DNA of 64,000 nt from IMG/VR virus record IMGVR_UViG_3300045988_171958, positions 1-64,000 of that record; one strand, written 5' to 3'. Below are positions 1 through 52,371 of this stretch, piece after piece. The notes beneath the pieces were generated by a model. The model had not been told where the DNA came from and searched no databases. It saw only the letters and a list, made by a program, of their open reading frames with translations. Position 1 is the first letter of the stretch; every line of letters begins with the position of its first letter. Source of the DNA: a virus. The position numbers were made by a program, and so were the translations under genes.

Positions 1-157
1 AATGAACATCACTTTCAGTTCTGCTCAAGAACTAAAGTTAATGAACATCACTTTCAGTTCTGCTCAAGAACTAAAGTTAATGAACATCACTTTCGGTTCT
101 GCTCAAGAACTAAAGTTAATGAACATCACTTTCAGTTCTGCTCAAGAACTAAATTTA
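1..157. repeat. Tandem array of a 39-bp unit (ATGAACATCACTTTCAGTTCTGCTCAAGAACTAAAGTTA), 4 copies, cut by the window edge
   Basis: Units at 2-40, 41-79, 80-118 and 119-157. Unit 3 has one A>G change and the last unit diverges near its end. Each unit carries the hairpin AGTTCT-N5-AGAACT. There are no spacers. Confidence 0.9.
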
Positions 158-159
158 TT

Positions 160-256
160 CACTAGGAACAATTAAAAATGGTCGAGCTGATAAATTATAT
201 CTCTCGACCATTTTCCGTTCCCTGACCGCCCCAGGCGCTTTCCTAGTGAATCCTTC
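160..256 (-). ncRNA. Conserved GC-rich structured 3'-UTR element, copy 1 (unknown family)
   Basis: Starts 2 nt after the stop of the 1310-aa gene. In the sense strand the core is AGCGCCTGGGGCGGTCAGGGAACGGAAAA (211-239). Flank CACTAGGAA (240-248) pairs with TTCCTAGTG (160-168). The inner hairpin GGTCGAG/CTCGACC is followed by a T-run. Confidence 0.55.
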
Positions 257-3200: not shown

Positions 3201-4191
3201 AAGTATTTGCTTCATTAAATACTTTCCAAGTCATAGTGACAATATCACCAGTATGGTCTACTCTATTAGATGACAATGCAAGATCTCTTATTACATTTTT
3301 ATAGTTAGCACTAGTAGGAACATTACTCTTCATTTTCAGATTTATCTTCCAGTTTCCATCACCAAGATATTCTGAACTTTCAAATGACATTGCATTCTTA
3401 TCTATGTTGAGTTCATTGATAGTAATTACATCCCCATAATGGTCCCCATAGAAACATCTTGCAGTATTTCCTGACATCATCTTTACTGTACCAGTTATGT
3501 TGCAATACAGAGAAATAGATTTGCCATTCACACCCACATAAGGATTGCTTTCAGTACCATATTCTTTTACTTCATCAGAAAACGTCTCATCTTTATACCA
3601 AGTGATTATTGCATTTGCATAAGATGGCCTAGCATTTGGGTCTTCTTCATCTTTATCCTGGACTATCTTTATCACTATTTGCTTGCCAGAATATTTAGAT
3701 TCAGAAGTATCTATCTGTTCATCTTTAGTATCAATTTGCCACAACGATACATAAGTAGTTCTAGAGCTAGAAGTAGATACATTACCAGATATGTTCAAAT
3801 CAAACAATGCATCATAATCATGCTTTTCTGCTGTCTTTATGTTCCATCCTATAGGATATACTATATTAGGAGCAGTTACCCAGTTATGGTAAGGTACTAC
3901 TTTGAATGGATATCTTCCATGCCAGTATTTTACACAAGATCTGACGTATAATGTTATGATATGGCTAGCTGCACTTACATGTATTCCATTTCTATCAAAA
4001 TCAGAATCAACAGAAATGAAATCATGGTTTTTGTTGTTTGAACTCCAAAAGAGATATTTTGAATCTCTTGGCCAAATCATCATATTTTTCCAAAAGACTG
4101 CATTTATATCTTTGAGCTTATCTGTCTTTGAATCTACTAACTTTATTGCACCAATATCTTGATTACCAGTTTTCTTAACGTATATTCCCAT
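259..4191 (-). CDS. Large fibre/receptor-binding-like virion protein with repeated BACON/Ig-like modules
   Basis: 1310-aa uninterrupted ORF. Repeated beta-sandwich-like segments end in W..LP.WL...N.L.F......TR.C.I.F patterns typical of BACON-type domains. The product call is tentative. Confidence 0.6.
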   Translation of the reverse strand: MGIYVKKTGNQDIGAIKLVDSKTDKLKDINAVFWKNMMIWPRDSKYLFWSSNNKNHDFISVDSDFDRNGIHVSAASHIITLYVRSCVKYWHGRYPFKVVPYHNWVTAPNIVYPIGWNIKTAEKHDYDALFDLNISGNVSTSSSRTTYVSLWQIDTKDEQIDTSESKYSGKQIVIKIVQDKDEEDPNARPSYANAIITWYKDETFSDEVKEYGTESNPYVGVNGKSISLYCNITGTVKMMSGNTARCFYGDHYGDVITINELNIDKNAMSFESSEYLGDGNWKINLKMKSNVPTSANYKNVIRDLALSSNRVDHTGDIVTMTWKVFNEANTLTRYSNVGFLLGRTYTSTTKVWQEGGSVSNQVTNVTCATGVSKEVAKWISISKPQINSATSSYYAKVTVNPQTATEKMYIENISTSYDDDVIPATDTLFQIMFMIFKKTGYYAERKGIINVTCVSDTKSVELTQIEYSDTSSKKITDRDIDKKKISVAGIVPNSYYSDMITSITNLRYDYNYLMWLADVSVTRNPKKILNHELMINSYPKTISHNAQYLEVIWSIITGELNSSPRYGRIKFSIPDYKCEDYYDLTQAGSTDAQGTKFDKNYLTKSKLYNISDNIVSSSTTAVDGPGKISLNGNFYIGTIKINENSNHNNTVAYIKPTEITDWSVSDFDNYNNAAFYIRIKGKNVYIGIDRNVKIKLEIAGIGSKEDTILQEKAPSVDSNTLANVTDLDVSSIKISGEATTNKLPYLITDEMYCVPVTLNKNDIPTKYDYDVVVGSEEYIESFDYGNYDDVSLTPEYSIPNYDNMYTVVTSWWRRQGEEKTRTVKLSVDGITKTITNTWTGIKYQGDQTYRSNLSEDYSLTLSDYNQQWISLNQNNLISSSNSTSSTRRLGLTDTLYLDDSKQKNLKLTLKQDPRGTSTNFLFSSSLESGTTKYLNATDSTSFMIYSLDDDLMQPLDMSWTPTKFNNMILSCTHNDYWYKFTVAPTSLNISDTNRTWEVSFTQATSSKKISLTFVQHCYQFSLSETSINITPNVEVTINVTSLKSGNFFGFTWDALPNWLMVYRTSDNKLTFKCIEINDSTKTRSCTIRFTQYESGIYKTLTISEESWRNPELDESTVDLYYKGAKSVKELYSDQAGVGLPITIRQSDGTLDSTKIKLTSRNISDSQYAIDIVSLADLEGTIPLVGRYALSNKNQYLGEIYCIMHAYQFSCSSDNISEIVWILSPKANELWSMYYVTSRIDGEFVDYEITEANGMFTCYHSGANITILPKFTNYDNERKNWSLTLKQNKTKKEIPVKVQQLGANEYEDIYI

Positions 4192-7679: not shown

Positions 7680-10289
7680 ATGGCAAACAAGCTTTTTTAC
7701 ACATACATACACGGTACAGATTATAAAAATGACAGCTTTGTTCCTAGTAAGATGATATATTCTTATTGGGATTCATTGATATTTGATGTAAATCATCGTA
7801 CTATATGGCATCAAGGTATGCCGTTTGGTAATGTATATCCAGGTACATTATCGTATGGTGAAATATTCAATGATCTTCAGAATAATATTGCACTTGGAGC
7901 ATATTCCCATGCAGAAGGATATAGCACTATTGCTAAATCAAATTATTCTCATGCAGAAGGATATAAAACATTTGTAGATGGAGTTAATGGGCATGTTGAA
8001 GGCAATTCTTCTTATTCTTTAGGAGAGAATTCTCATGCTGAAGGTAGCTTTTCTTATTCTAGAGGAACAAACTCTCATGCTGAAGGAAATAAATCTGAAG
8101 CACAAGGTAGAAATGCTCATGCTGAAGGTTTTCTTACTTATGCTATAGGTGAAGATTCACATGCTGAAGGAATCAATACTTATGCAAAAGCTAACTATTC
8201 ACATTCTGAAGGTAATATTACTAAAATAGAAGTTGATGCAGAAAACTCACATGCTGAAGGTTACAATACAATTGTAAGTGCTAAGAATGCTCATGCTGAA
8301 GGTAATACTACAATAATAGAGAATACTGGAGAAAACTCACATGCTGAAGGTTTGAAAACAAAAGTCAGATCAAAAAACTCACATGCTGAAGGTAATGAAA
8401 CATTAACCACAGGTGATAATTCCCATGCTGAAGGTTATAAATCAAAAGCATTTTCTACTAATACCCATGCTGAAGGTAATACTACACAAGCAATTGGTGA
8501 GAATTCTCATTCTGAAGGGCATAATACTGAAGCTAAATCTAAGAATTCACATGCTGAAGGAAATCACACTATAGCTGCAGGAGAGAATTCTCATACAGAA
8601 GGATCTGAAACAAGTGTAAATTCCCCTTATACACATGCAGAAGGAAATAATAATGCAATAAATACATTATCTGATTCTTCACATATTGAAGGATCAAACA
8701 ATAATATATCATTTTCAAAATCTTCACATGTAGAAGGTGATAACAATGTGAATGGTGGTAATATAGGTATCATAGCAAATTCACATTATTCCCATGTAGA
8801 AGGTTTGAACAATAAGAACTATGCTATAAATTCTCATGTAGAAGGAAAAGATTCATCTAATTTTGGTAAAGAATCTCATATAGAAGGTGTTGGCCATCTA
8901 ACTTATGCTTATACAAGTCATATAGAAGGATATGCAAATAAGATTGGAAAGACCATAGGTGATACAAAATATGTTCATGTTGGTGGTACCAAAAATACTG
9001 TATATCCAAACAGTGAGAATAATGTAATATATGGTCATTCAAACAAAGTAAAGGGTATATACTCTGAAGTAAATGGTGAATCTATAAACAGTTATGCAAA
9101 CTATTCTGTTTTAAGAGGTAGTTTATTACAAATAAACAGTAATGGCATTGAAAATAACCAAAAAGGAATAAATTTTGTAAATGTTTCGGGTAATAACATT
9201 ATAGTTGAAGAAAATGCAACCTATGGATTTGCCCATGGTTCTCACATAAGATTACAATCTCCTTATGAAGTTGGTTTTGGGAGATATACAAAATCTTATT
9301 TAGATAATCAAAAGCAAGATAAGGAAAATACAATATTCATCATAGGTAATGGCAATGCTAGTAAGGAATCAAATGCTTTAGATGTAAGAGAAAATGGAAT
9401 AAGCTATCTTTATAAAGGAATATATACTTGGGATTATGTAGAAGACTATCCTTATTCTACTGTTGCAGATAATCCATCATCATACTGTATTACTAGAAGA
9501 CAACTTGCTCAAGTAGCAACAGTTACTTATGTAATGAGAAATTCCGCTGGTAGAAGAAATTTCTATCCATTAGTAAATGATCCAGATGATCCAGGAAAAC
9601 TTAAACCTAAATTTGCTTATGCCGAGTATTTCAATAATTATGGTGATGGCAAGAGTGCTCCTAACAATGCTTATGCTGATTTCTGTCATGCAGAAGGATG
9701 GGGTACTTACTGTCATACTGGTGGTACTTATTCTCATGCTGAAGGTTGTGGTACAGAAACAAGAAATCCAGGAGAACATGCTTCAGGTAACTGGAACAAA
9801 TCATCAGACAATACTTTGTTTTCTGTTGGTTGGGGTACAAACAATGTAAACAGAGCAAATGCTTTTGAAATAAAGAGAACACCAACAACTGATGGTATAG
9901 CTTTCATAGATAAGAAACCAATAGTTACTTCTATATTGAATGGCACCGGTCCTACTTATATGTGGAAGGGTGATTATGATGACTATATAAAGATTAAACA
10001 AGTAGATCCAAATACCTTGTATTTCATATATGATGGAGATGCTTCTACAAGAAATGACTTCATCAGTATAGATCAGATGGATGATATAGTAAACAGAAAA
10101 GTAGAAGAAAAGATCAAACAATATACTCAAGGTATGCTTTACAATGCTAATTATAGTCCTAAATTCATTGGATCTGGTGGTGATTCTAACTTTAGTTATG
10201 TTTGGTCTGGTAATACAACAGACTTTGCTGGTCTTGGTTCTCTTGCTAATGATGTTAATACAATATTCATCATAAGAAACAATAAATAA
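7680..10289 (+). CDS. Tail fibre/spike protein with SHAEG-type beta-helix repeats
   Basis: 24 consecutive [ST]H[AVI]EG repeats with a ~14-aa period, then FIIGNGNASKESNALDV and RANAFEI motifs. The start was moved to ATG 7680 because a terminator hairpin lies inside the track's N-terminal extension. Confidence 0.75.
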   Translation: MANKLFYTYIHGTDYKNDSFVPSKMIYSYWDSLIFDVNHRTIWHQGMPFGNVYPGTLSYGEIFNDLQNNIALGAYSHAEGYSTIAKSNYSHAEGYKTFVDGVNGHVEGNSSYSLGENSHAEGSFSYSRGTNSHAEGNKSEAQGRNAHAEGFLTYAIGEDSHAEGINTYAKANYSHSEGNITKIEVDAENSHAEGYNTIVSAKNAHAEGNTTIIENTGENSHAEGLKTKVRSKNSHAEGNETLTTGDNSHAEGYKSKAFSTNTHAEGNTTQAIGENSHSEGHNTEAKSKNSHAEGNHTIAAGENSHTEGSETSVNSPYTHAEGNNNAINTLSDSSHIEGSNNNISFSKSSHVEGDNNVNGGNIGIIANSHYSHVEGLNNKNYAINSHVEGKDSSNFGKESHIEGVGHLTYAYTSHIEGYANKIGKTIGDTKYVHVGGTKNTVYPNSENNVIYGHSNKVKGIYSEVNGESINSYANYSVLRGSLLQINSNGIENNQKGINFVNVSGNNIIVEENATYGFAHGSHIRLQSPYEVGFGRYTKSYLDNQKQDKENTIFIIGNGNASKESNALDVRENGISYLYKGIYTWDYVEDYPYSTVADNPSSYCITRRQLAQVATVTYVMRNSAGRRNFYPLVNDPDDPGKLKPKFAYAEYFNNYGDGKSAPNNAYADFCHAEGWGTYCHTGGTYSHAEGCGTETRNPGEHASGNWNKSSDNTLFSVGWGTNNVNRANAFEIKRTPTTDGIAFIDKKPIVTSILNGTGPTYMWKGDYDDYIKIKQVDPNTLYFIYDGDASTRNDFISIDQMDDIVNRKVEEKIKQYTQGMLYNANYSPKFIGSGGDSNFSYVWSGNTTDFAGLGSLANDVNTIFIIRNNK
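7900..8935 (+). repeat. Degenerate ~42-bp (14-codon) periodic repeat encoding G.NSHAEG..T
   Basis: tc(a/t)catgc(t/a)gaagg recurs about every 42 nt. Confidence 0.8.
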
Positions 10290-14800: not shown

Positions 14801-16829
14801 TGATTGGTATGTTTATGGTCCTACCGTTACTTTAGGAACTCCGTCCATAACTACAGAAGCTGGGCTTTCAAAAATTACCACATGGAAAGTTGGTGCTAAA
14901 AAATCTGGTGTCACTATACCAGAAACAATATCTGCATTTGCAAAACCAAAAGATAAAGAATTCAAAATATCTGTATCTGTTAACCCATCAGTTACAGCTA
15001 GATGGGAAGCTTCAATATCTGTTGGTAGTTTGACATCATCTGATTCTGGTACATTTGATACATCAAGTTATGGATCTGGTAAGATATATTCTAGTATAAC
15101 TTATAAATGGAATAATAGTGATGAAGAAGTAACAAAAGAAATAACTTGGAAACCAGATGTACATGCTGCTAAAGAAGATTATGAAGAATCAGTTTCATGC
15201 ACAGTAACAGTAACATATCAGGATGGGACAAAAAAATCAGATACATTGACTTGGAAAATAAAAGTTCTTAAGACAGATGTTACATTTGCTGGTACTTTGA
15301 AATGTAGTGATGATAAGACAATAAATGCATTTGATCCACAAACTTATGATACATCTGCTTGGGTTGATAAATATAAGGTTACTGCTACTTCAGGTACATT
15401 AACAGAAGATTGGACAAAATCTTATCCTCCGGTTTTAAATGCAACAGAACATAAATTAACTGCAGTACAAGGTACCGATGCAACTACTACAGGTAGTACA
15501 TCATTTAAGTATACTTTCAAAACACCAGAAATTTCAAATGCTAATGCTAAAAATACTCTTGAGGATGAACATACAGTTTATTTATATTGCTATGGTGTAA
15601 CAGTTGACTTTGCTGGTACTTTGAAATGTAGTGATGATAAGACAATAACTGCATTTGATCCACAAACCTATGATACATCTGCTTTTGTTGATAAATATAA
15701 GGTTACTGCTACTTCTGGCTTACCAACTGTTGATGAAAATGGAACTGTTACAAAACCTGCACCAACAGAGGATTGGACAAAAACTTATACTTATACTTTG
15801 AATGATACAACACATAAGTTGACTGCAGTACCAGGAGCTAATGCAACTACTCTTGGTTCTTCAACTTATGAATATACATTTGCATGTCCTGTTAGTAGTA
15901 TTCCAAATACCATTGCTATTGGTAATAATGCTTCTAGTAAGCATACGGTTAAATTGTATACTTATGGTGTATCTCTTGACTTTACTGGTACTTTGAAATG
16001 TAGTGATGATAAGACAATAACTGCATTTGATCCACAAATTTATGTTACTACATCATCATGTCCAGATTATACTATTACTGCTAGATCAGGTATCAATTCT
16101 GATAATGAATATTTGAATGGTATAAATGGAAATAATGTAACAACACAAAATTGGACTAATATTAAAGTTAATGGTGTATCAACAGCTAAGTCATATAGTG
16201 ATACATATCCTCCTGTATTTAATGCTACAACATATAAGTTGACTGCAGTACCAGGAGCTAATGCAACTACACTTGGTTCTTCAACTTATGAATATACTGT
16301 TACATCAACTTATCCTAGTGTAGAAAGTAAGTTAGTTGTTAATACTAAATTACAAGACAAGAAAGAAGTTACTTTATACACTTATGGTGTATCTCTTGAC
16401 TTTGCTGGTACATTAAATGTTAATGCCCCTAAGACAATAACTGCATTTGATCCACAAATTTATGTTACTACACCATCATGTCCAGATTATACTATTACTG
16501 CTAGATCAGGTATTAATTCTGATAATGAATATTTGAATGGTATAAATGGAAATAATGTAACAACACAAAATTGGACTAATATTAAAGTTAATGGTGTATC
16601 AACAGCTAAGTCATATAGTGATACATATCCTCCTGTATTTAATGCTACAACATATAAGTTGACTGCAGTACCAGGAGCTAATGCAACTACACTTGGTTCT
16701 TCAACTTATGAATATACTGTTACATCAACTTATCCTAGTGTAGAAAGTAAGTTAGTTGTTAATACTAAATTACAAGACAAGAAAGAAGTTATTTTATACT
16801 GTTATGGTAAATCTTATTACAATAAATAA
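11820..16829 (+). CDS. Giant fibre-like/decorating structural protein with tandem Ig/BACON-like domains
   Basis: 1669-aa S/T/N-rich ORF. Four C-terminal repeats begin D[FV][AT]GTLKCSDDKTI.AFDPQ.Y. Confidence 0.7.
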   Translation: MATEYGKPKFEDSSKNLMFTMKGQPSDDELARVVNVVSKNNISISNLGFTSSSEYSKSHNSDVTYDIVVNTKNNTYRIDWKLKSNIGKHPNKTTSLKYGLLSWFNNGNEGTKGNPVTYTSTKHQMYGETNFNSSSSLAALRYFDAKVRVHGLDGDSNKEVVFNTASSFAGDNKQIKGVAQGFYNYDNPYTVFKAKAGYKDKNGNWIYPNWISFQTANGGISKEISITSSSGDISTDDNAHYLIVSDNSPSVKYGDISGTQTVHYNIDKDVNGNSISNTHAGSVTFTSDNNGKAFTNTDTNKSNATSTDRHTTITYLLEDYNTSSSGLSNTISGSFTLYQKGGNIPPKDPELTYDWSIINGTEKYVSSTKVVKTNVTAITQDDKGNKYTQYYSYANKYIINVKDNSGTIGSITGTPSISAIFNPKPVYKTGTFTISGLTMTPAVNTSSRDITVRTKVSGNYCTNFNVSNTYVDTTVTQAGSNWLPKPTVVGKLSITCENPQTDKIDQSSPASFKIKQSVSGTYSTSLSNVLLNGNTSNEFYYEFGTISASSTNIKVSGDIKVTEPSNKTFTYKGGSINVTMYPGSLTFDAGYSKKVDDIKWKLKFTPDSTQNNKQYTNVKSTEITVTQTGITEGSEKTYNPLIITGKSSSNWLTVGNTCTFNYNDYNNYISTKPAKMALSANPNRTSVNKITVTDTYASNVYKVKITDVDESVEQTASLALSSSDSNTTLNKTSITGFKQSTEAINCNVSLSYKDPNGASNKYVNLIGTGLSISDTNEHNLSIPRGTTGHTNNTLTGLSAVVDGDNDKLTIITSDGKVLWWSPNPDTSVYLNVNASGSNLGEYTLSKSSITVSIPGDLKQTPWVKWYSKAEGGSWTKISDEASNPSISQSGSAASATSSSPSLTARGTGYGLTNKPFKLTRGKPSSASTKVYYKVESSAGSAGTDDSVYIERTDGSTGFGQVSVTASSTNISITADSSISVGSENLQVPGSTQYTDWYVYGPTVTLGTPSITTEAGLSKITTWKVGAKKSGVTIPETISAFAKPKDKEFKISVSVNPSVTARWEASISVGSLTSSDSGTFDTSSYGSGKIYSSITYKWNNSDEEVTKEITWKPDVHAAKEDYEESVSCTVTVTYQDGTKKSDTLTWKIKVLKTDVTFAGTLKCSDDKTINAFDPQTYDTSAWVDKYKVTATSGTLTEDWTKSYPPVLNATEHKLTAVQGTDATTTGSTSFKYTFKTPEISNANAKNTLEDEHTVYLYCYGVTVDFAGTLKCSDDKTITAFDPQTYDTSAFVDKYKVTATSGLPTVDENGTVTKPAPTEDWTKTYTYTLNDTTHKLTAVPGANATTLGSSTYEYTFACPVSSIPNTIAIGNNASSKHTVKLYTYGVSLDFTGTLKCSDDKTITAFDPQIYVTTSSCPDYTITARSGINSDNEYLNGINGNNVTTQNWTNIKVNGVSTAKSYSDTYPPVFNATTYKLTAVPGANATTLGSSTYEYTVTSTYPSVESKLVVNTKLQDKKEVTLYTYGVSLDFAGTLNVNAPKTITAFDPQIYVTTPSCPDYTITARSGINSDNEYLNGINGNNVTTQNWTNIKVNGVSTAKSYSDTYPPVFNATTYKLTAVPGANATTLGSSTYEYTVTSTYPSVESKLVVNTKLQDKKEVILYCYGKSYYNK
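15961..16800 (+). repeat. Two tandem 420-bp near-identical copies inside the 1669-aa gene
   Basis: 15961-16380 versus 16381-16800 differ at about 16 positions by manual count, 11 of them within ~30 nt near the unit start. Older, more diverged copies lie at ~15277-15960. Confidence 0.9.
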
Positions 16830-16914: not shown

Positions 16915-19900
16915 ATGGCAAAAATATCAGATGAAGCAGTACGTAGAAGTAAAGGAGTAAATTTACCGGGAGGTATACCACAAAAGGACAATAATTCTAT
17001 TACTGGTGAATTGTCTTCAATTGTAAAAGAAGTATCTAAAGATATAATTAAGCACATTGATGAAGTTTATTCTGGGGTAGATCTGATATTTAATGGGTTA
17101 TTGGATCCAAGCCAATATAAGCTTTCCCAAAGTGATATGGCGTTAATGTCTTTTATATCTGGGGGTCAATCTATATCAAAAGATCAATCATATTCTTCTA
17201 GGCAAACAAATATTCAACAATTTGCTAAATCAATATCTGAAAATCTTAATAAGACTAATAAGATATTGACATCTGATGGCATGCAAGTTATTGTGACTAA
17301 TTTTAATGAACAGAAATTAAAAAAAGAAAAACCACAGAATGTAGAAGTAAAAGTACCTGAAATAAAACCTGTCATAAATATACCTGATTATAGTAAACAA
17401 TTAGATGTATTAAGATTTACAATAGAAAGATCAAGTAAAATTGCATCAGATAATATAATAAAGGTTTTAACTACTAAAAATGAAATAAAAGAAAAACCAC
17501 AGAATGTAGAAGTAAAAGTACCTGAAATAAAACCTGTCATAAATATACCTGATTATAGTAAACAATTAGATGTATTAAGATTTACAATAGAAAGATCAAG
17601 TAAAATTGCATCAGATAATATAATAAAGGTTTTAACTACTAAAAATGAAATAAAAGAAAAACCACAGAATGTAGAAGTAAAAGTACCTGAAATAAAACCT
17701 GTCATAAATATACCTGATTATAGTAAACAATTAGATGTATTAAGATTTACAATAGAAAAATCAAACAAAACTGCATCAGATAATATAATAAAGGTTTTAA
17801 ATAGCAATACCAATAATCAAACTAATCCTGTTGATTTAAATAATTTACAGATAAAGATAGATGACTTGAACTTATCTAAAGAGTCTAAAGATGTATTGAA
17901 AGATTTGTCAAATGCATTAAATAGTGTTGCTAAAGTAAAGTATGAAGTTAAAGATCAAAATATAGTACAATATCTTATAGGAATAGATAAAAGTATATCA
18001 AAAATAGATATAGATAATCTTAAGAAGAAAATATCTAAAGTCAATAAGTTGTTGACAAATGACTTTGCTGGTCTTTGTAAAGCCATAAATTCTGCATCTA
18101 TAAACTCTAAGAAAAATATGTCTCAGTTATCAAGTATAGTTGAACTGATGAACGGTATTCCTTCTATAGGAGAAATAGATAAGCAGAAAATGAAAACCCT
18201 GAAGAAAAATCTTCATTCTATATATTGGATGACATCAAAATCAAACATTCTTACAGGGCTTGGTATCACTTCTAAAGGTATCATATCTGCTATTATAGAG
18301 AATATAGTAGCTAGATCAAAAGAAGCCGGACAAGGCGGATTCAAATCAGTAGGTGCTTTAGCTAAATTTATAGAGTCATTAGTTTCTTTAGGAGAAGATA
18401 CAAATGTAGACAGAACCAAGATAATGAAGAGCCAAATGGCTCTTTGGTCACTTCTTAGAATATATGATGTAAAAGGTCCTATTGCTTATCTTACTTTACA
18501 AATAAAAGAACTTGGTGATAATATACTTAAGGACAATGTTGTTGGAAAGAACAATTCATCACTTAGTGCTATAGAAGATATGATAGAAGACATTAGTACT
18601 ATTGGGAATTATATAAAGTTTAAAGATGTTGTCTATAGCCAGTTGTTAGCAACTTATGCTTTAGGTTCTGCTTGGCTTTACATAGGTATTGTTAAGTCTC
18701 TTTCTAAGATAGATGACACTGAGCTCAAGAAACTGATAGGTGATAATGGAAAGCTTGCATTTGTCATGCAAGTTGTACAGAGACTTTCTGCTAATGAATC
18801 AACTTCTAAAGATATAAAGAGCGCTACAAAAACTTTGGTTCAACTTGTTATTATGATGAGTGTAGCAAACATGATATCTAAAGTAAGTAAAAATGGAATA
18901 GTTGGGATATCAGATGCTTTAGTTTTCTTAGATAAGCTTGACTTCTTAGGTCAAAAAATATTCACTATGCAAGATTCTGCTATCAATGATGAATCAGTTC
19001 CTAACATAATGAAGAATTGTGAAAATATGGTTCTTAGTTTAGGAAAGATTGCAGTTGTCAGTACTATAGCAGGAATGTTTGTTGATAAAGGAAAAGAAGG
19101 AGTGTCAAATATGAAGACTATGGTCACTCAACTTAAATATTTAGTCAACAACATAAATAATAAGAAGAATCCACTGATTGCTTCTAAAGATGATGTATCT
19201 AAGATAGAAAGTTGCCAGAAGATAGTAGAAAGTCTTACTAAATTATCAATATTAGCTGCTGTAGGAGGGTTGTTTGCTGTCAAAGGACAAGATGGAATAA
19301 GAGAATATAAGAAAGTAGTAACTAAGCTAAAGAGTTTGATAAAGAGAATTCAATCTGATGGTCTTGATATAAACCAAGAAGATTTGAAGAAAATAGACAA
19401 TATAGAGAAATTAATAGAAAAACTAACTATAGTGTCCATGCTTGGATCTGCAATGGGTATAACTGCACCTTTATCAATATTAGGATTTAAGTCTATGCAA
19501 TTATCTGCTGTAGCAGTAGGTAAGATGATAGATACTCTTGGTAAAATAGAAATAAATGATGATTTCTTTGATAAACTTAAAAATATAGGTATTGTTGTAG
19601 CTATAGCATCAGCAACAATGTTAGTTGGTGCAGTCATAGGAAAGATTGTTCTTCAGAGAATGCCTGAAATACTTGGATTTACATTTGCTTTAGGAACATT
19701 CATACTTGGTGTGATAGGAGCTTACAATCTTGCTACTAAAGGAATGGATGAAGCTTTGGAGCAAACTAAGAAAGTAGCTCTTTTAATATATATGTCAGGA
19801 GCTACTCTTTTGCTAGGAGCTGCTGTTATGATGATACCAGGTATCTTTACTAATGCTGTTCTTTTCACACTTTCTCTAGCAGCATTTATAGGTGCTGTTA

Positions 19901-23776: not shown

Positions 23777-24628
23777 ATGTTTTCATTACCAGGAAAGAGA
23801 GATGGGTTCAGATTGATATTACCAGATGAATTCATTCCAGATGAGATACAAGAAAAATATACTAAGATATTGCAAGATTCACATAGTTTCATAACTAAAC
23901 CAATAGAATTCTTGAATGAGACAATACAGAAAGTAGAAGTACTTGGATTCTCATCTGGTACTGTAGCTCAACAGCAAACTAATCATGGAAATCCAGTAAG
24001 GCTTCCAGGAAGAACTGAACAAAATTGGATGCAAGGAGGTGCTAGTGATGTAAATTACAGAAGTGTTGCTAGTCCAGCAGCTTTAGTGGACCATACATTG
24101 AACATAGATTTCAGGCATACTTTAGGATATGTAAATTATTTCTTATTATTTGAAAGCTTTTGCTATCAATACTGTAGAGATACAGAAAATTTAGATAAGA
24201 ATCTTGACTACACCTTTAATGTTGATCTGTTAAATGAAAATGGATGTGTATATTCTAGAATTGTATTAGATCACCCAGTTATAGATGGAGTAGATATGCT
24301 GCAATTTGACTATACTCAACCATTAGCACAATCTGCTACATTCAGATGTGTATTCAAATATTCTAACTTTGACTATCAGTTCATTCAAACTGATGCTAAC
24401 AACAGATTTGAAGAAGAACAACCATTTGACAAACCTATAGAGGAAAGTGTAATCATTAAAAAGAAAGATGATACAGGGTTTAAGAATTACCCTTATTCTA
24501 AGGTATCAGTACATGGTAATACAACAGATAATCTTGATTTGAATCATGACCCAGAATTAAATGATGATTGTGGGCCATCTGATAATTCTAAAACTTATAT
24601 TGATTATGATGGTTCACCAATAAAATAA
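23777..24628 (+). CDS. Hypothetical protein (last gene of the long + strand virion module)
   Basis: 283-aa ORF. Confidence 0.75.
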   Translation: MFSLPGKRDGFRLILPDEFIPDEIQEKYTKILQDSHSFITKPIEFLNETIQKVEVLGFSSGTVAQQQTNHGNPVRLPGRTEQNWMQGGASDVNYRSVASPAALVDHTLNIDFRHTLGYVNYFLLFESFCYQYCRDTENLDKNLDYTFNVDLLNENGCVYSRIVLDHPVIDGVDMLQFDYTQPLAQSATFRCVFKYSNFDYQFIQTDANNRFEEEQPFDKPIEESVIIKKKDDTGFKNYPYSKVSVHGNTTDNLDLNHDPELNDDCGPSDNSKTYIDYDGSPIK

Positions 24629-24732
24629 CAGGGTTCCCCTGTTAAGCGCCTGGGTCACACAGGGAGCGGATAATTGTTTATAAGTATAATTTATAACCTA
24701 CTATATTATAAACGTTCCTGTGTGACTTTTTG
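24629..24732 (+). ncRNA. Conserved GC-rich structured 3'-UTR element, copy 2
   Basis: Starts immediately after stop TAA 24626-24628. Core AAGCGCCTGGGTCACACAGGGAGCGGA at 24644-24670. GTCACACAGGGA (24654-24665) pairs with TTCCTGTGTGAC (24715-24726), followed by TTTTTG. Inner hairpin GTTTATAA/TTATAAAC. Confidence 0.6.
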
Positions 24733-24743
24733 TTTAAATAGAA

Positions 24744-24780
24744 TTTGAAATTTTTAAAAATCATTTCTATAATATATTTG
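24744..24780 (+). promoter_or_regulatory. Extended Bacteroidota-type promoter
   Basis: TTTGAAAT at 24744-24751, N13, then TTCTATAATATATTTG at 24765-24780. Confidence 0.55.
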
Positions 24781-24802
24781 AACAATTTAAATAAGAAATA
24801 AC

Positions 24803-25174
24803 ATGAAACGTGAGGATCGAAAGAAGTTTGAAAACGTCAGTTTGTTTACATTTGATGAAATGTTGAATGGAAAATTAGATAGATGGGAATCTTGCACATT
24901 GAATGGAAGAAACAGTCCAGCATTAGTATATTCTTTAGTAATTGATATGTTCAGATATATTGGAGATACAAGACCTGAAGAACAATTGCTTAATGAATGT
25001 AAAACCGATAGAGATTGGTTCCAGAAACATACTTGGACTACAATTCAACATAACAAATGGAGAGAAGAACATCTTATCCCTGTAATTATGAAAAGAATGA
25101 GATTGCCAAAGTATCGTGCAGAACGAGAGAGTTCTTGGTTTATGTTGCAGTGGTCATTCAAAATTGAAGACTAA
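24803..25174 (+). CDS. Hypothetical protein
   Basis: 123-aa ORF. Confidence 0.7.
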   Translation: MKREDRKKFENVSLFTFDEMLNGKLDRWESCTLNGRNSPALVYSLVIDMFRYIGDTRPEEQLLNECKTDRDWFQKHTWTTIQHNKWREEHLIPVIMKRMRLPKYRAERESSWFMLQWSFKIED

Positions 25175-25898: not shown

Positions 25899-27779
25899 AT
25901 GATAAATGAGATAGAATATAATATAGAAAATATAGCAAAAGAAGTACTTGGTGATGATTTTAAGTTTAGAGAGAATCAACTTGAAATTATTGCAAAGATA
26001 GTACGTAATTGCATAGACGAGAAAAGTAATCACCAGACTCATTTGGTTCAAGCACCTACTGGTACTGGTAAGTCAATAATCTTAATAATATCTGCATTAG
26101 TACTTGCAGAATGTTACAACAAGAAGAGTTTTCTTCTCTGTTCTGATCTTTCTTTGTGGAAGCAATATGATGACTTTATTGATTCACATAAAAAGCTGAA
26201 ATATAAGATTGGAAGAATAAAAGGATCTGCAAATTATGTTTGTCAGAAAAACAACAAAGAAGTCAATAAAGGAGAATGCAAGATAGCTAAGGTTTCTTGG
26301 AAAACTTTGATTAATCCAGAATTAGCTGATGATTGCGGATATGATTGTGCAAGATGGTGCCCTTACATTAAAGCAAGAAAGCAAGCTATGCGATCTGATA
26401 TTACTATCATGACGTATCAGATGTATTTCAGAGCAGTAGCTGGTCATATAGAAGTAAATCCAAATGCTTGGTATGTTCGTCCTATTGTATTTTGTGATGA
26501 GTGCCATAATATTCCTAATTTGCTTCAAGGTTCATATTGTCCACAATTGAAAGATACAAATCTTTCTAAGTTGTTGCACATATATGATTATGCAATAAGT
26601 TTGAACAATGATATGTTTGCTGATGAATGGCAAGAAGAATTGTCAAGTCTTTCAACAGATATTTCTTGTTCACATAATCAGTTGAAGGATAATCTTGAAG
26701 CTTTATTCAATTCTATATATGAATGTAATGACAATACTGTTCTTGACAGAATAAAAGAATATGCTTATAAGATTAGTATGTTCAATGGTGTTGTAGATAA
26801 GATAATGGAAAAACTTTCTGCAAACATCAAAGGAAAGGGTTATGTTTCAAGTACAGAATATGAAGTATATGAAGAATGTGAATGGCAAAAGAGGCATGAA
26901 ACTATGCTTAAAAATTACTTCAATATTGTTGCTGTAGAAGAAAATAAGGATTATGTTGTTGTAACACCAAATGAACATACTATAGAAATGTTCAACCATA
27001 AAACTGGAAAGGTTGCTAAAAAGAAGGAAAAGACTATCGATTTACAATGTGCAAAAGAAGATTATATTGCACAAGCATTTTTGTTACAAGGGCCAGAACA
27101 TGTTGTTATGACTTCTGCAACTATAGGAAATATGGGTAGTTTTTCTGAAAACCTTGGTATTGTTGATCCATTAGAGGATAATCTTCCATCATTGTTTGAT
27201 TTTACGAACAGTCCTATATATGTTCTTTCAAGATGGAAAATGAGTCAGAAATTCAAAGATGAAAGTTTTCCACATGTACAAGCTGCTACTTATGAGCTTT
27301 GCAACAGATATAAGAATAAGAAAGGAATAATCCAGACTTGGACTTATGATCTTGCAAAGAAGATATATGAAGAAGCTCCACAAGAATTGAAGGATAGAAT
27401 GCTTTTGTATAATGATGCAAAAGAAAAGAGAGATTTGATAGATTACCATAAGAATACCGATTCTGATACAATATTGGTTGGTCCAACATTGAATGAAGGT
27501 ATTGATTTACCAGGAGATGAATGCAGATTCATCATTATGATTAAGATGCCATATCCATATCTTGGATCTAGACTAGTTCAACGTAAGAAAGATTTGTATG
27601 ATGGGTGGTATCAAAATGAAACATTGCGAACTATTATTCAAAGTATTGGTAGAGGTGTAAGATATGATGGTGATTGGTGTCAAACCTATATCTTGGATGG
27701 CAGTTTTAACTTCTGGTTTTATCAGATGAAATCTTCAATCCCATTAGAAACACAAAAGAGATTCAAATTCTATAGTTAA
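25899..27779 (+). CDS. DinG/XPD (Rad3)-family Fe-S helicase
   Basis: Walker A QAPTGTGKS, DEAH-like box FCDECHN, a four-Cys cluster (C..C...CGYDCARWC) between motifs I and II, and C-terminal GPTLNEGIDLPGDECRFIIMIKMPYP. Confidence 0.75.
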   Translation: MINEIEYNIENIAKEVLGDDFKFRENQLEIIAKIVRNCIDEKSNHQTHLVQAPTGTGKSIILIISALVLAECYNKKSFLLCSDLSLWKQYDDFIDSHKKLKYKIGRIKGSANYVCQKNNKEVNKGECKIAKVSWKTLINPELADDCGYDCARWCPYIKARKQAMRSDITIMTYQMYFRAVAGHIEVNPNAWYVRPIVFCDECHNIPNLLQGSYCPQLKDTNLSKLLHIYDYAISLNNDMFADEWQEELSSLSTDISCSHNQLKDNLEALFNSIYECNDNTVLDRIKEYAYKISMFNGVVDKIMEKLSANIKGKGYVSSTEYEVYEECEWQKRHETMLKNYFNIVAVEENKDYVVVTPNEHTIEMFNHKTGKVAKKKEKTIDLQCAKEDYIAQAFLLQGPEHVVMTSATIGNMGSFSENLGIVDPLEDNLPSLFDFTNSPIYVLSRWKMSQKFKDESFPHVQAATYELCNRYKNKKGIIQTWTYDLAKKIYEEAPQELKDRMLLYNDAKEKRDLIDYHKNTDSDTILVGPTLNEGIDLPGDECRFIIMIKMPYPYLGSRLVQRKKDLYDGWYQNETLRTIIQSIGRGVRYDGDWCQTYILDGSFNFWFYQMKSSIPLETQKRFKFYS

Positions 27780-27786
27780 AATATTC

Positions 27787-28140
27787 ATGAAACTTACAAC
27801 ACTTGTAAAATTAAATGAAATGAAGGCAACTATGATATTTAATGATATTGTAGTTGAAGGAGATGAACAATCTCCATTACAAAAATTTTTCAATAAGCAT
27901 GGTATTGTACCAGAAAAAATAAGTCCAGATTCTAAAGTAAATCAAATTGGATTTTCAGAAAAGGAACAAGCTTGGTATGGGTGGAGTCACCGAGCTATCT
28001 ATGGATTCAAAATTGGAGCTAAAGCAGGTCCTGGTAAAGTTGGATATGAAACATTGAAACAAGAGAATGGACCATTAGAAGCAAAAACATTAGATGATTG
28101 TAAGAAGATGGCTATGGCTTTTGCTAAAGAAATATCATAG
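27787..28140 (+). CDS. Hypothetical protein
   Basis: 117-aa ORF. Confidence 0.7.
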   Translation: MKLTTLVKLNEMKATMIFNDIVVEGDEQSPLQKFFNKHGIVPEKISPDSKVNQIGFSEKEQAWYGWSHRAIYGFKIGAKAGPGKVGYETLKQENGPLEAKTLDDCKKMAMAFAKEIS

Positions 28141-31755: not shown

Positions 31756-32130
31756 ATGAAGAATTGTACAGAATTAGATAAATTTAATTTGGAATTAGTA
31801 TTGCAAGCAATTTTATGGTATGGCACAGGTTATCATAGTCGTAATACTACCATCAAGATTGATTTGCTAAAGGATATTTTTGAAATAACTACAGCAGAAG
31901 ATTTACAGAAGCTATATAATTTGTTAGGTGATAAGTCGAATAGAATTTATGGTGTATGTTTTGCAGATGGTACAGTAGAAATGTATCCTATTAATGAATG
32001 TCCTATCTATTTTCTTTCACATGATCCGGCATTGACTAATCGTTCTATCATATATTCTTTTAAGGATGATCTTGATGATGCAGGTATTTTTGTTACAGAA
32101 TTCTTTACGGATTTACGAGATTGCCTATAA
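31756..32130 (+). CDS. Hypothetical protein
   Basis: 124-aa ORF, the last gene of the + strand module. Confidence 0.7.
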   Translation: MKNCTELDKFNLELVLQAILWYGTGYHSRNTTIKIDLLKDIFEITTAEDLQKLYNLLGDKSNRIYGVCFADGTVEMYPINECPIYFLSHDPALTNRSIIYSFKDDLDDAGIFVTEFFTDLRDCL

Positions 32131-32222
32131 ATTCTCCAGGGAAGCGCCTGGGTCACACAGGGAGCGGAAGAATATGTTTCAGTATATTCTATCAGCTAAG
32201 ACAATTTTAACGTCCTTGGCAC
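32131..32222 (+). ncRNA. Conserved GC-rich structured 3'-UTR element, copy 3
   Basis: Starts immediately after stop TAA 32128-32130. The core at 32142-32168 is identical to copy 2 over 27 nt. CCAGGGA pairs with TCCTTGG (32213-32219) with one G.U. Inner hairpin AGAATAT/ATATTCT has no T-run. Confidence 0.6.
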
Positions 32223-32224
32223 AA

Positions 32225-32256
32225 TAATTTAAGTTCTTGAACAGAACTATGAAAAC
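32225..32256 (-). repeat. Solitary partial copy of the 39-bp unit (inverted relative to the array)
   Basis: TAATTTAAGTTCTTGAACAGAACTATGAAAAC compares with the reverse-complemented unit TAACTTTAGTTCTTGAGCAGAACTGAAAGTG. Confidence 0.7.
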
Positions 32257-32257
32257 A

Positions 32258-32296
32258 AAAAAGAGAACCTTCAATTGAAAGTTCTCTTTTCTTTTA
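32258..32296. terminator. Bidirectional intrinsic terminator between convergent genes
   Basis: AGAGAAC (32262-32268) pairs with GTTCTCT (32281-32287), with an A-run upstream and TTTTCTTTT downstream. Confidence 0.65.
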
Positions 32297-44323: not shown

Positions 44324-44380
44324 GTAAGTTAGATATATGCTTAAGTAAAAATATCATCAATTGAATATCTTTTAAGAGTT

Positions 44381-44478
44381 CACCAGGAACAACAAAAAAT
44401 GCTTTAGACATATAATTTATAGTCTAAAGCATTTTCCAATCCCTGACCGCCCCAGGCGCTATTCTAGGGAATCCATGA
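44381..44478 (-). ncRNA. Conserved GC-rich structured 3'-UTR element, copy 4
   Basis: Starts immediately after stop 44479-44481. In the sense strand the core is AGCGCCTGGGGCGGTCAGGGATTGGAAAA (44432-44460). Inner hairpin ATGCTTTAGAC/GTCTAAAGCAT is followed by TTTTTT. The distal box GTTCCTGGTG lies at 44381-44390. Confidence 0.55.
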
Positions 44479-46245
44479 TTATGAATCTATTGATACTACT
44501 AATGGGTCACCAATAGTAGATGGAGCAACAGTTATTTCATCTTCTGGTCTTGGCAATACACCTGAAGAAATGAGTTTTCTAACTAAATGATCTGTCTTTT
44601 CTCCTAAAGCATCTGTATCAATATTCTTTATTCTAAAGAAGTACTTGAAGTGTGAATAGTCAGATAGTTGTACTCCATAAAGATAAGAAGTATCAAACCA
44701 TTTTCCTGCACCCGCATATATACCACAATGATTCAATATAGTAGATTCATTCTTTACACCTATATCACCAGGTTTAAGATCATCAACAGATATTCTTTCC
44801 CAATCATTATCACTGAATAAAGTGAAGAAGTCAACACACATGTTAGGTGTCTTTACATTCAATGCCTTCTTCATTACATATTTGATATATCCAGAACAAT
44901 CCAATCCATATTCTGGTTTGTCTTTACCATGTATCTTATAGAAAAGACCTGGTTGCATAAGTAAGCAGTTGTACATTACTTCTTGTCTCTTACTAGATAT
45001 AAGTGACCAGTCATGTTCCCAAAGTTCAAGAATAGTATTTTTGTCGTATGATGTAAAGCATCTGCCTTTGTCTTGGCCAAATTCAAAATCATCAGTATGG
45101 TAGATAGCATTCTTCTTCATGTATGCTTCTATCTTATCTATCACAATGTCAAACATATTATGCTTGATTTGTTGTGATATTCCTTGAACACCCGGACTTG
45201 AATTATATTCTATTACAAAGTCACCATCAGTACAAGCCATCAAGTCAATACCAACCCATCTGCATCCAGAAAGCTTAGCAACCTTCAATGCAATTTCTTT
45301 TTGCTTGTCTGTCATCTGGTATTCTTCTGTCTTAGCTCCTAATGAGACATTGCTTCTGAAGTCGCCACTTATCTTATCACGTTTCATACAAGCAAGTATC
45401 TCATAATTAGCACCATCAACGGAAAATGCATGTACACGAATGTCACCAGTATTCTCTTTATATTCTTGTATGATGAATTCTGCTTCTTTATCCACAGCAA
45501 ACATAGCTTGCAGTATTCCTTCTATTTCATCATGATTGCAGATGAATACACCAATACCAAGACTACCATTCAGTATCTTTACTACGTATTGTCTGTTTTC
45601 TTTCAGTTCATTTATGTTCTCATTATCTTTATAGATAGAATCAAGCATCTTCCAGAAACTTTCTCTAGTATCGTGGCATTCTGTATTCAAGTCCTCCATC
45701 AATTCTCTTGTTATCAGTACATATCCTGGCTGTGGAATATTTTCTTTAGCCAATAAGTTAGATGCAAGATACTTGTCAGATGCCATGATGATTTCATCTA
45801 TAGTATTCAGCATGAAGAAACCTTCATATTCAAATGCCCTCATCAACCCAATATAGTTTTTCTTATTGTCATCATTAGCTTGACCTTGGAATATGATAGT
45901 ATCATGAATGTTAGAATGTTTCAATGAGAAATGCATGTCTGTTATATCATCATCTATAGATATGATATGATTAGAATAAGTAAATCGTACTGTTGCTTTG
46001 TTCAACCATACAAGATTCAGCTTTCTCTTATGACAGCAAATAGTCAAATAATCTTGATAAGACCAATCTTCTTCTTTTTCTTCTGCCGCTTCATCGTAAC
46101 TCTTTACTTTCTTTTCTCCAACATAGAAGCATATTACATTCTTTATTTCTAACTTGGTATCATTTTTCAGAAGCGTCATTGCTTCATTTATGTTTGCATG
46201 CCCTATGTTCTTATATTCTTTTTCCATTTTATTTACAAAGTTCAT
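44479..46245 (-). CDS. RimK-like ATP-grasp ligase fused to a C-terminal NlpC/P60 cysteine peptidase domain
   Basis: ATP-grasp motifs: KILNGSLGIGVF, GDIRVHAF, GDFRSNVSLGA, VIEYNSSPGVQGI. NlpC/P60 motifs: GLDCSGYIKYV ... PGDIG ... NHCGIYAG. Confidence 0.7.
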   Translation of the reverse strand: MNFVNKMEKEYKNIGHANINEAMTLLKNDTKLEIKNVICFYVGEKKVKSYDEAAEEKEEDWSYQDYLTICCHKRKLNLVWLNKATVRFTYSNHIISIDDDITDMHFSLKHSNIHDTIIFQGQANDDNKKNYIGLMRAFEYEGFFMLNTIDEIIMASDKYLASNLLAKENIPQPGYVLITRELMEDLNTECHDTRESFWKMLDSIYKDNENINELKENRQYVVKILNGSLGIGVFICNHDEIEGILQAMFAVDKEAEFIIQEYKENTGDIRVHAFSVDGANYEILACMKRDKISGDFRSNVSLGAKTEEYQMTDKQKEIALKVAKLSGCRWVGIDLMACTDGDFVIEYNSSPGVQGISQQIKHNMFDIVIDKIEAYMKKNAIYHTDDFEFGQDKGRCFTSYDKNTILELWEHDWSLISSKRQEVMYNCLLMQPGLFYKIHGKDKPEYGLDCSGYIKYVMKKALNVKTPNMCVDFFTLFSDNDWERISVDDLKPGDIGVKNESTILNHCGIYAGAGKWFDTSYLYGVQLSDYSHFKYFFRIKNIDTDALGEKTDHLVRKLISSGVLPRPEDEITVAPSTIGDPLVVSIDS

Positions 46246-51147: not shown

Positions 51148-52371
51148 ATGAATCATGATAGTATTTTATTAAAAATCTTTTTTAATAAAGAGAATAAGAT
51201 AATTGGAGGAAAAGTAGCAAGGATAAAAAGAATATTCCCAAACATATTGTCTTATTTAAATAAAAGATATCCTGATTCATTTTCTTTAAAAGAAACTCTA
51301 ATTAGGATGAAATATCATATTGATGTTCATCCAAAATGCCCGGTTTGTGGAAATTTTACAAAGTTTTATGGGTTTAAAAATTTGATGTTTGCAAATCATT
51401 GTTCTAACAAATGTACTCAATTAGATAGTGAAACTAAAATAAAATTTAAACAAACTTGCTTTAAAAAATATGGGGTTGATGCTCCAATGAAATCTTCTAA
51501 AATAAAAGAAAAATCTAAACAAGTTTGTTTAGAAAAATATGGTGTGGAAAATATATCACAATTTTTTGAAACTAAAGAAAAATATAAACAAACTTGTTTA
51601 GAAAAATATAATGTTGATAATCCATTTAAATTAGAAAAAACGAAAATAAATTCACATTCAAAAGAAGCTAAAGAAAAGCAAAGAAAAACTTGTTTAGAAA
51701 AGTATGGAGTAGAAAATTCATTCCAATCAAAAGAAGTTAGACAAAAATATAAAGAAAATTATAAAAGAAAATATGGAGTAGAAAATCCATTTCAAAACGA
51801 AATAATAAAAGAAAAGATAAAACAAACTTGTTTAGAAAAATATGGTGTTGATAGAGCAATTAAAAGTGATTTGGTAAAAGAAAAATGTAAACAAACTTGC
51901 TTGGAAAAATATGGAAGTAGTTCACCAATGAAAAACCCATATATTGTAAATAAATCTATAAATAAGAGAATTCAAAACAATACTTGGTCTACTTCAAAAC
52001 CAGAAGAAGAATTGTATCTTTATATAAAAGAAAGATTTCCATCTGTAAAAAGACAGTATAAAGATAAAGAAAGATACCCATATTTTTGTGATTTCTACAT
52101 TCCTGAATTAGATTTGTTTTTAGAATTGAATGGGACTTGGACACATGGAAACCATCCTTATGATATGAATTCTAAAGAAGACAATTCTATATTAAATATA
52201 TGGAAAGAAAAATCTAAAGAACATCCTATGTATTTAAGTGCAATAAAAACATGGGTTGTAAGTGATGTAAATAAGAGAAATAAAGCAAAAGAAAATCATT
52301 TAAATTTTAAAGAAGTTTGGAATTTAGATGAAGGAAAAGAATTTATAAATAAATTAACTAGAAGAGAATAA
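51148..52371 (+). CDS. Homing-endonuclease-like protein: Zn-ribbon, 7 C.EKYGV.N repeats, and a C-terminal PD-(D/E)XK/Vsr-like motif
   Basis: CPVCGN...HCSNKC at the N-terminus. The ~30-aa repeat K..C..KYGV.NP.Q occurs 7 times. The C-terminus carries YFCDFYIPELDLFLELNGTWTHG. Confidence 0.55.
   Translation: MNHDSILLKIFFNKENKIIGGKVARIKRIFPNILSYLNKRYPDSFSLKETLIRMKYHIDVHPKCPVCGNFTKFYGFKNLMFANHCSNKCTQLDSETKIKFKQTCFKKYGVDAPMKSSKIKEKSKQVCLEKYGVENISQFFETKEKYKQTCLEKYNVDNPFKLEKTKINSHSKEAKEKQRKTCLEKYGVENSFQSKEVRQKYKENYKRKYGVENPFQNEIIKEKIKQTCLEKYGVDRAIKSDLVKEKCKQTCLEKYGSSSPMKNPYIVNKSINKRIQNNTWSTSKPEEELYLYIKERFPSVKRQYKDKERYPYFCDFYIPELDLFLELNGTWTHGNHPYDMNSKEDNSILNIWKEKSKEHPMYLSAIKTWVVSDVNKRNKAKENHLNFKEVWNLDEGKEFINKLTRRE

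Follow-up and report, generated by a model that had tools for sequence, protein, structure and literature searches.

The repeat unit at positions 24629–24732 of the window (the whole stretch of viral DNA that was analysed, 64,000 nt in length) is, on balance, probably an intrinsic terminator within a terminator–promoter cassette; it is one copy of a repeated, phage-specific intergenic palindrome that would act as RNA on the strand given. A polymerase finishing the transcription unit of the open reading frame (ORF) 23777–24628 would transcribe a small 5′ hairpin and then a long irregular hairpin. The GC-rich base of the long hairpin, GUCACACAGGGA / UUCCUGUGUGAC, with a U-tract directly 3′ of it, would end the transcript and leave a protective 3′ hairpin behind, while the next unit (ORF 24803, RuvC-like resolvase, helicase) would start at its own promoter 20 nt further on. 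To our knowledge, almost nothing is known about how transcription is organised in Lak-like giant phages of the human gut; the element family could serve there as an easily recognised marker of transcription-unit ends, its copies being GC islands in a genome of 31% G+C.

The copy at 24629–24732, hereafter copy A, contains the stem described in the sequence-only reading: GTCACACAGGGA (24654–24665) pairs with TTCCTGTGTGAC (24715–24726) over 12 bp, TTTTTG (24727–24732) follows directly, and the letters match the coordinates. One of the 12 pairs is a G·U pair, ten perfect pairs are reported, and the arms lie 49 nt apart. RNA folding of 24650–24732 gives −25.4 kcal/mol (z = −5.05), a stability reached by none of 200 shuffled sequences, and the long stem also appears when the minimum-energy structure is computed for the entire copy A region. 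The 5′ hairpin CAGGG-TTC-CCCTG that had been noticed upstream is likewise present (24629–24641), and grows to 8 bp, TAACAGGG/CCCTGTTA, when 24626–24633 is paired with 24637–24644; this hairpin, H0, begins at the stop codon TAA (24626–24628) of the upstream ORF. Equivalents of H0, of the form YAGG...CCUG, are found in other ‘type b’ copies, with AAG/CUU variants. Read on the minus strand, H0 is a terminator-like hairpin followed by TTTTATT, so the cassette could also stop antisense transcription entering the upstream gene. The 24-nt core of copy A, 18 of whose 24 nucleotides are G or C, has an exact second match at 32144–32167, where 0.06 matches would be expected by chance; in most family members the core also provides CCUGG, the 3′ arm of a short hairpin, H1. 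The parts of copy A and the related features of the window are collected in Table 1.

Table 1. Features of copy A and of the related elements, by position in the window
Feature	Position	Strand	Remarks
Subfamily-B copy	154..253	−	After stop of 1310-aa ORF 259–4191(−); fold z = −7.4
5′ mini-hairpin H0, TAACAGGG-TTC-CCCTGTTA	24626..24644	+	Overlaps stop codon of ORF 23777–24628
GC-rich 24-nt core GCGCCTGGGTCACACAGGGAGCGG	24646..24669	+	5′ arm of long hairpin H2
Local alternative hairpin CCTG-GGTCACA-CAGG	24649..24663	+	Weak, transient; no sequence variation
5′ strand of H2, including GTCACACAGGGA at 24654–24665	24652..24668	+	From folding
Variable AU-rich apex of H2	24670..24712	+	Own small hairpins; module exchanged between copies
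3′ strand of H2, including TTCCTGTGTGAC at 24715–24726	24713..24728	+	From folding
U-tract TTTTTGTTT	24727..24735	+	Directly 3′ of stem; from sequence
Promoter-like TTGAAA-17-TATAAT for next unit (ORF 24803...)	24745..24773	+	11 of 12 consensus matches
Copy B, second subfamily-A copy	32131..32218 (profile match 32129–32229)	+	Just after stop of ORF 31756–32130; H1 = CCAGG/CCTGG
Canonical bidirectional terminator, separate from copy B	32257..32292	.	Downstream of copy B, between convergent genes
Subfamily-B copy	44379..44474	−	After stop of ORF 44479–46245(−)

The proposal that copy A is a terminator is supported: a long stem and a U-tract stand directly behind a stop codon, with a promoter-like sequence downstream. 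Copy A combines a GC-rich stem and a U-tract with a position at the end of a unit and an orientation shared with the gene, as do intrinsic terminators. It lacks the compact short-loop hairpin typical of them, and a simple terminator consensus scan (loops of 3–8 nt) does not call it; the roughly 49 nt between its arms are AU-rich and partly paired. Eleven of 11 orthologous copies at the same position, found by a search with the core, have the stem, a U-rich tail and the promoter box, with a mean of 5.7 T in the first 8 nt of the tail. The promoter-like sequence belongs to a TTTGAAAT...TCTATA family that is repeated through the window: TTTGAAAT-N16/17-TCTATATT(T)AT stands upstream of plus-strand gene blocks at 4243, 24745, 28147, 31420, 47672, 57017 and 59198 (+). 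This repeated motif is similar to promoters of the host sigma type and seems to be the one that the phage uses as standard.

Clustering of the flanking sequences of all copies collected gives about 11 syntenic positions (U0 to U10), at nine of which the element is co-oriented with the upstream gene and close behind it, starting a few to about 20 nt after the stop codon. The stem is intact throughout the copies at U3, U4, U6 (the position of copy A) and U10, always with a T-rich tail (5.7–6.5 T in 8 nt) and a TTGAAAT box within 75 nt. The remaining positions depart from this layout in several ways. U2 (the position of copy B) and U8 are convergent gene ends, where the distal stem and the tail have decayed and a canonical terminator follows. 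U0 has a weak tail, with the start of the next gene about 35 nt away. At U1 and U9 the element lies antisense in minus-strand operons whose genes are tightly packed, in the gap from one stop codon to the following start codon, and there is no U-tract in the transcribed sense (L002, L007 at 8536–8641, L009 and L021, and L011 and L029); the terminator model does not explain these inverted copies.

A profile search of the window returned four copies, copy A at 24630–24732(+) and the three others listed in Table 1, the two subfamily-B copies reading 253–154(−) and 44474–44379(−); all four stand directly behind the stop codon of a co-oriented gene. Stretches of 24 nt that reach 16 of 24 G+C occur at five places in the window, four of which are the cores of these four copies. 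Copies A and B share a repeat of 87 nt with 74% identity, and copy B has lost the distal half of H2 (CGTCCTTGGCAC). In the copy at 154–253 the outer inverted repeat of 12 bp, ATTCACTAGGAA/TTCCTAGTGAAT, and the apical stem, AAAATGGTCGAG/CTCGACCATTTT, are both perfect, while the copy at 44379–44474 has an equally perfect apical stem, AAAATGCTTTAGAC/GTCTAAAGCATTTT, whose sequence is wholly different. Some copies have a further neighbour. At 1–156 (+), and running past the start of the window, are four tandem copies of a 39-nt unit, AATGAACATCACTTTCAGTTCTGCTCAAGAACTAAAGTT, whose reverse complement, AACTTTAGTTCTTGAGCAGAACTGAAAGTGATGTTCATT, carries a hairpin AGTTCT-N5-AGAACT and directly follows the copy at 154–253. 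A single such unit is also found after element copies in L007, L017, L023, L033, L035, L037 and others, and a remnant, AGTTCTTGAACAGAACT, lies at 32232–32248, after copy B.

In total, more than 115 copies of the element were collected from related human-gut phage contigs. A search with the exact core gave 31 copies in seven IMG/VR contigs of 167–283 kb from one metagenome; a further 58 stretches came from ENA/JGI contigs of up to 292 kb, several of them labelled human gut metagenome, and a single 292-kb contig contains at least nine copies. Another 14 copies (L116–L129) lie in two metagenome-assembled genomes (MAGs) of GTDB labelled Romboutsia (CALFLM01 and CALESE01). Among GTDB genomes the 20-mer searched for is confined to these two ‘uncultured Romboutsia sp.’ MAGs, and the element was not found in other bacterial genomes there. 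The flanks of the copies in the MAGs are those of the phage loci, so the contigs are taken to be misbinned DNA of an AT-rich phage; since there is no GTDB match beyond them, the core does not appear to have been copied from host sequence. The helicase at 25899–27779 has its best matches in Prevotella Lak megaphages, at about 35% identity, and the phages that carry the element are a clade of distant relatives of the Lak megaphages from the human gut. In 42 kb of Lak-A1 around the homologous helicase, neither nhmmer nor a search for pieces of the motif detected the element.

Other searches gave no relative of the element. Nothing relevant was found in INPHARED (50,697 GenBank phage records) by blastn with 1.6 kb, or with the element alone at E values up to 10. 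Rfam gave chance-level matches only, both at gathering scores over the whole window and at E values up to 10 over 24500–24900; a search for tRNA and tmRNA found none, and literature searches returned no description of the element. Hammerhead, HDV-like and twister folds do not fit, by eye and by Rfam. A template/variable repeat of a diversity-generating retroelement (DGR) was rejected, because the repeat begins after stop codons and the upstream coding sequence is not repeated. The gapped pattern GCGCCN5TCACAN5AGCGG gave only chance matches in IMG/VR, in GC-rich contigs (L039–L115), and the matches L032, L034, L036, L197 and L198 to short core patterns are also unrelated chance matches. CCWGG (Dcm-type) sites number 46 in the window, where 25 would be expected, and are not confined to the elements.

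The anatomy common to the family was derived from an alignment of 88 distinct copies together with averaged pair probabilities. The unit is about 100 nt long and consists of the short 5′ hairpin H1, the long irregular hairpin H2 and, usually, a U-rich tail. H1 is made of YYAGG, six nucleotides and CCUGG, with its 3′ arm forming the start of the core. The base of H2 is (G)UCACACAGGG[A]GCG / CGUCCCUGUGUGA(C), followed by an A/U run and a variable AU-rich top. Copy A is a variant in which TTCCCCTGTTAA takes the place of TTCTCCAGGGAA and the upstream YAGG forms a separate mini-hairpin. The core motif GTCACACAGGG recurs in degenerate form, and in direct orientation, at the 5′ end of the element (ATTCNCYAGG), and the inverse of both makes up the 3′ arm; each element thus contains a motif of 10–12 nt twice in direct orientation (ATTCNCYAGG and GTCACACAGGGA) and once inverted, plus the CCUGG segment. 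These four segments can be paired as 1:2 + 3:4 or as 1:4 + 2:3, and both global folds occur as minimum-energy folds in different members. Over the 88 copies H2 is the dominant predicted pairing (mean pair probability 0.8–0.88), and 86% of its cells are paired, as against 32–53% in controls in which the whole H1 + H2 structure was slid. A truncated variant occupies a further syntenic position (L153 6059–6148, L017 13892–13970, L119 7912–7996, L143 13022–13098 and L033 5572–5489); the core in its 5′ half is mutated (CACACAGGAAGCGG or GGTGTCAGGG), its apical stem, GGTCGAGA/TCTCGACC, is strong, and no 3′ arm can be recognised.

Several observations bear on the level at which the structure acts. 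Among the 88 copies, G·U pairs outnumber A·C pairs by 155 to 20 and folding is more stable for the sense strand (−31.0 versus −27.8 kcal/mol for the antisense, in 67 of 88 copies), although the copies are interrelated and these figures therefore overstate their independence. In related copies the apical stem is kept through A-to-G changes that make G·U pairs and so preserve pairing by wobble; between the two subfamily-B copies of the window the apical stem is perfect in both, with no sequence in common. Together with the high pairing of H2, these observations suggest a genuine structure that functions at the level of RNA. Covariation adds little: neither H1 nor H2 shows two-sided changes, because their 5′ arms barely vary, and the near-invariance of these arms leaves a covariation test little power. 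Applied to 35 copies, RNAalifold gave nothing but the local hairpin, which does not vary (Table 1), and a covariation scan of all pairs of positions gave nothing consistent. The 5′ arm and the CCUGG segment are more conserved than the 3′ arm, a difference that pairing alone does not explain.

The sequence-only reading had gone further, and had proposed that the core of copy A takes part in mutually exclusive pairings of the kind seen in attenuators, riboswitches and antitermination targets. In such a conditional terminator, a factor of phage or host, or the ribosome that finishes the upstream ORF, would stabilise the local hairpin or occlude the 5′ segment, and so allow read-through into the next module. 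The four interchangeable segments, the flip of the minimum-energy fold between the two global folds among members, and the stronger conservation of the 5′ arm and of CCUGG, which is expected of residues with two partners, are consistent with this, as is the start of the element within or near the footprint of a terminating ribosome. Nevertheless a conditional terminator is improbable, and covariation, energetics, location and the core mutations in relatives all fail to support it. None of 19 pairs in H1 and H2 changes on both sides in the 88 copies, and shuffles equal the observed values. The local pairing of CCUG (24649–24652) with CAGG (24660–24663) exists, as had been pointed out, but it is weak: with two flanking G–C pairs it reaches −7.6 kcal/mol (z = −1.06), a value matched by 30 of 200 shuffles. 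The fold of copy A that contains the terminator stem has −32.0 kcal/mol, against −20.2 kcal/mol when the stem is barred, a gap of 11.8 kcal/mol; at most positions the gap is 10–23 kcal/mol, and it approaches zero only where the arms have decayed. In a transcript of 72 nt the local hairpin belongs to the minimum-energy fold and at full length it is replaced, which makes it a transient intermediate; its loop exposes UCACA, a nucleation site for the 3′ arm of the long stem. Termination would not be relieved by the second global fold, which consists of the local hairpin, an apical hairpin and an outer helix, since the same 3′ arm is again paired there, beside the U-tract.

Location argues in the same direction. 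The 24803 unit has its promoter downstream of the element, which is not placed between promoter and gene; the downstream genes are served separately, and some copies stand at convergent gene ends, with nothing to read through into. Four of seven orthologous copies carry core mutations without compensation, and no Rfam family matches. A 5′ leader location, covarying exclusive helices, and near-equal energies or a recognisable aptamer, which mark riboswitches and attenuators, were not found. The size of the energy gap, the pairing of the 3′ arm in the second fold and the separate downstream promoter together make a regulatory switch unlikely. The alternative pairings are explained by the internal repeat architecture (two direct motifs and one inverted motif, with CCUGG), and no result marks them as a regulatory design. 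A bolder form of the idea is that giant gut phages possess in this element a cis-acting structured RNA of a new class, with a core read by a phage-encoded factor or by the ribosome terminating 1–20 nt upstream, so as to set transcription from module to module, with the four-segment design as a working switch; this would be a long shot.

The core itself had been described as invariant, which it is not. It recurs exactly in copy B; the second subfamily has GCGCCTGGGGCGGTCAGGGAAC in its place. When the relatives of copy A were sampled by way of the flanking protein and not by way of the core, seven loci were obtained, and the uncompensated substitutions found in four of them (CAGTTGGCGG, CACGGTTGGCGG and CAGTGAGCGG) make the apparent invariance partly a product of searching by the core. 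At the position of copy B the core is intact in six of six relatives, although termination there is supplied by another hairpin. Retention of the core where termination is redundant suggests that the core matters beyond termination, and it is from this feature alone that something new might come, for example a sequence-specific RNA- or DNA-binding partner.

Exchange between copies may offer a partial account of this conservation. At the copy A position the flanking protein is at least 95% identical in six of the seven relatives (78% in the partial seventh), whereas the identity of the middle module of the element falls to 0.49 (median 67%). The closest middle module lies at another position for 21 of 84 copies, near-identical modules being found elsewhere, and the 5′ module and the tail/promoter module also swap between copies. 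The flanking genes are collinear and the flank clusters correspond almost one-to-one, the apparent exceptions at U4 being collinear as well. No empty site was seen: 12 of 12 syntenic loci that reach the site carry the element, and a thirteenth (L193) ends before it. Swapped modules, collinear flanks and the lack of empty sites point to gene conversion between fixed paralogues, rather than to transposition or to shuffling of the kind known from PeSL cassettes (see below), and the family has probably been homogenised by exchange between its copies. The GC-rich sequence would then be kept in part by gene conversion among the 11 or so, or more, copies of each genome, and a sequence-specific partner may constrain the core in addition. 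Regulatory cassettes in these genomes may, more generally, be homogenised by recombination.

Two further explanations compete with a terminator–promoter cassette. One places the function in the DNA, as a signal that sits where it does no harm: the motif of 10–12 bp (GTCACACAGGGA and relatives), or the core of 24 bp, would be the site of a phage protein that acts in recombination, packaging, the handling of replication forks or transposition. Inverted pairs of the motif would then make terminator stems by coincidence, as with the DNA uptake sequences discussed below, and in one variant the terminal inverted repeats would mark it as a decayed, MITE-like element. The three copies of the motif in each element, two direct and one inverted, would suit such a site, as would the perfect 12-bp terminal inverted repeat of the copy at 154–253, the occurrence of both orientations relative to transcription, the intact core where termination is redundant, the recombination between copies that module exchange reveals, and the isolation of the cores as GC islands in an AT-rich genome. 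A DNA site is nonetheless unlikely: it does not account for the strand asymmetry, with its excess of G·U over A·C pairs and a better folded sense strand, or for the co-orientation with transcription at nine of 11 positions. Nor do mobility and its traces appear, as the syntenic loci sampled through flanking proteins include no empty site, no target-site duplication is visible, the flanks at U4 are collinear and not shuffled, and the 30 window ORFs scanned against Pfam, which are a partial test, contain no transposase or recombinase domain.

The other explanation keeps the function in the RNA, as an element of processing or stability or as a small RNA derived from the 3′ untranslated region. 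RNase III or another nuclease would cut the duplex, separate the cistrons and leave stabilising 3′ hairpins, and the released RNA of about 100 nt might act in trans. An imperfect duplex of about 25–30 bp does lie between cistrons, including at sites that lack a U-tract or where the next gene is about 35 nt away (U0); the structure signal of the sense strand supports a role as RNA, and the antisense copies are accommodated, as such a hairpin would fold whichever way the element is turned. Against this, no conserved internal-loop signature was defined, and the layout of U-tract and promoter is explained no better than by plain termination. Processing is judged unlikely, slightly more so than a DNA site.

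Two other features of the window deserve mention. A candidate anti-defence gene is the 117-aa ORF at 27787–28140 (+), for which Pfam gives a match to PF25188 (Tad6, an inhibitor of type I Thoeris; E = 9e-29). Extensive tandem repeats run in frame through parts of very large ORFs (894, 1669 and 2279 aa, and others), at 7900–8660, 15280–16770, 17319–17813 and 51436–51983, with periods of 42, 420, 165 and 69 nt and no Pfam match; from their repeats, they look like repeat-rich structural or surface proteins.

In trp-type attenuators, and in RAT/ANTAR targets, segments paired as 1:2 + 3:4 can re-pair as 2:3, and the conserved sequence overlaps the 5′ arm of the terminator. Both kinds stand in 5′ leaders between promoter and gene, their energetics are balanced or are tipped by a factor, and their helices covary. 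Unlike them, the element described here stands at the 3′ end, shows no covariation and strongly favours folding as a terminator. In phage T7, the intercistronic RNase III sites are a family of long irregular hairpins between genes, co-oriented with transcription, that leave stabilising 3′ hairpins. The element is similar to them, but many of its copies are followed by U-tracts and promoters.

Among repeated palindromes of bacteria, REP/BIME and ERIC sequences are intergenic imperfect palindromes at the 3′ ends of genes; they occur in both orientations, are transcribed in mRNAs, and have been proposed to act in termination and mRNA stabilisation (PMC3733652, PMC2817692). A REP/BIME unit, like the element, combines direct and inverted copies of a motif (PMC3733652, PMC2817692). 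REP sequences measure 20–40 bp, end in a GTAG or CGTC tag, occur in copy numbers above 100 and go with a RAYT transposase (PMC3733652, PMC2817692), whereas the element is about 100 nt long, occupies about 11 syntenic positions and belongs to a phage. In size, tag and copy number the element therefore differs from REP/BIME: CGTC is present in it, but internally and not at its end, and no RAYT (TnpA-REP) was found in the 30 window ORFs scanned against Pfam. The terminal inverted repeats of a MITE are seen, perfect in the copy at 154–253 and imperfect in other copies; its target-site duplication and its presence/absence polymorphism are not. The DNA uptake sequences of Neisseria and Haemophilus are conserved sequences of 10–12 nt, inverted pairs of which form the stems of Rho-independent terminators (PMC1852404). 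As in these, the stem sequence of the element is conserved beyond the needs of pairing, although theirs serves natural transformation in bacteria (PMC1852404).

The closest concept is that of the PeSL (promoter-early stem-loop) cassettes of T4-like phages, in which a repeated stem-loop terminator and a host-type promoter start at the upstream stop codon, and which occur in many copies that recombine with one another (PMC2839356, PMC4122927). No sequence relation between the two exists. The hairpin of the element is about 75 nt long and precedes the promoter instead of overlapping it, its copies have a GC-rich core of 24 nt in common, and a promoter is present at only some positions. Gene insertions, deletions or replacements bounded by copies, of the PeSL type, were not found, exchange being confined to modules inside the element. 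What the two share is the layout and the recombination from copy to copy (PMC2839356, PMC4122927), and a repeated stem-loop with a host-type promoter at a stop codon is found in copy A and at U3, U4, U6 and U10. Though undescribed, the element falls into a known category, that of repeated terminator/palindrome cassettes between phage genes.
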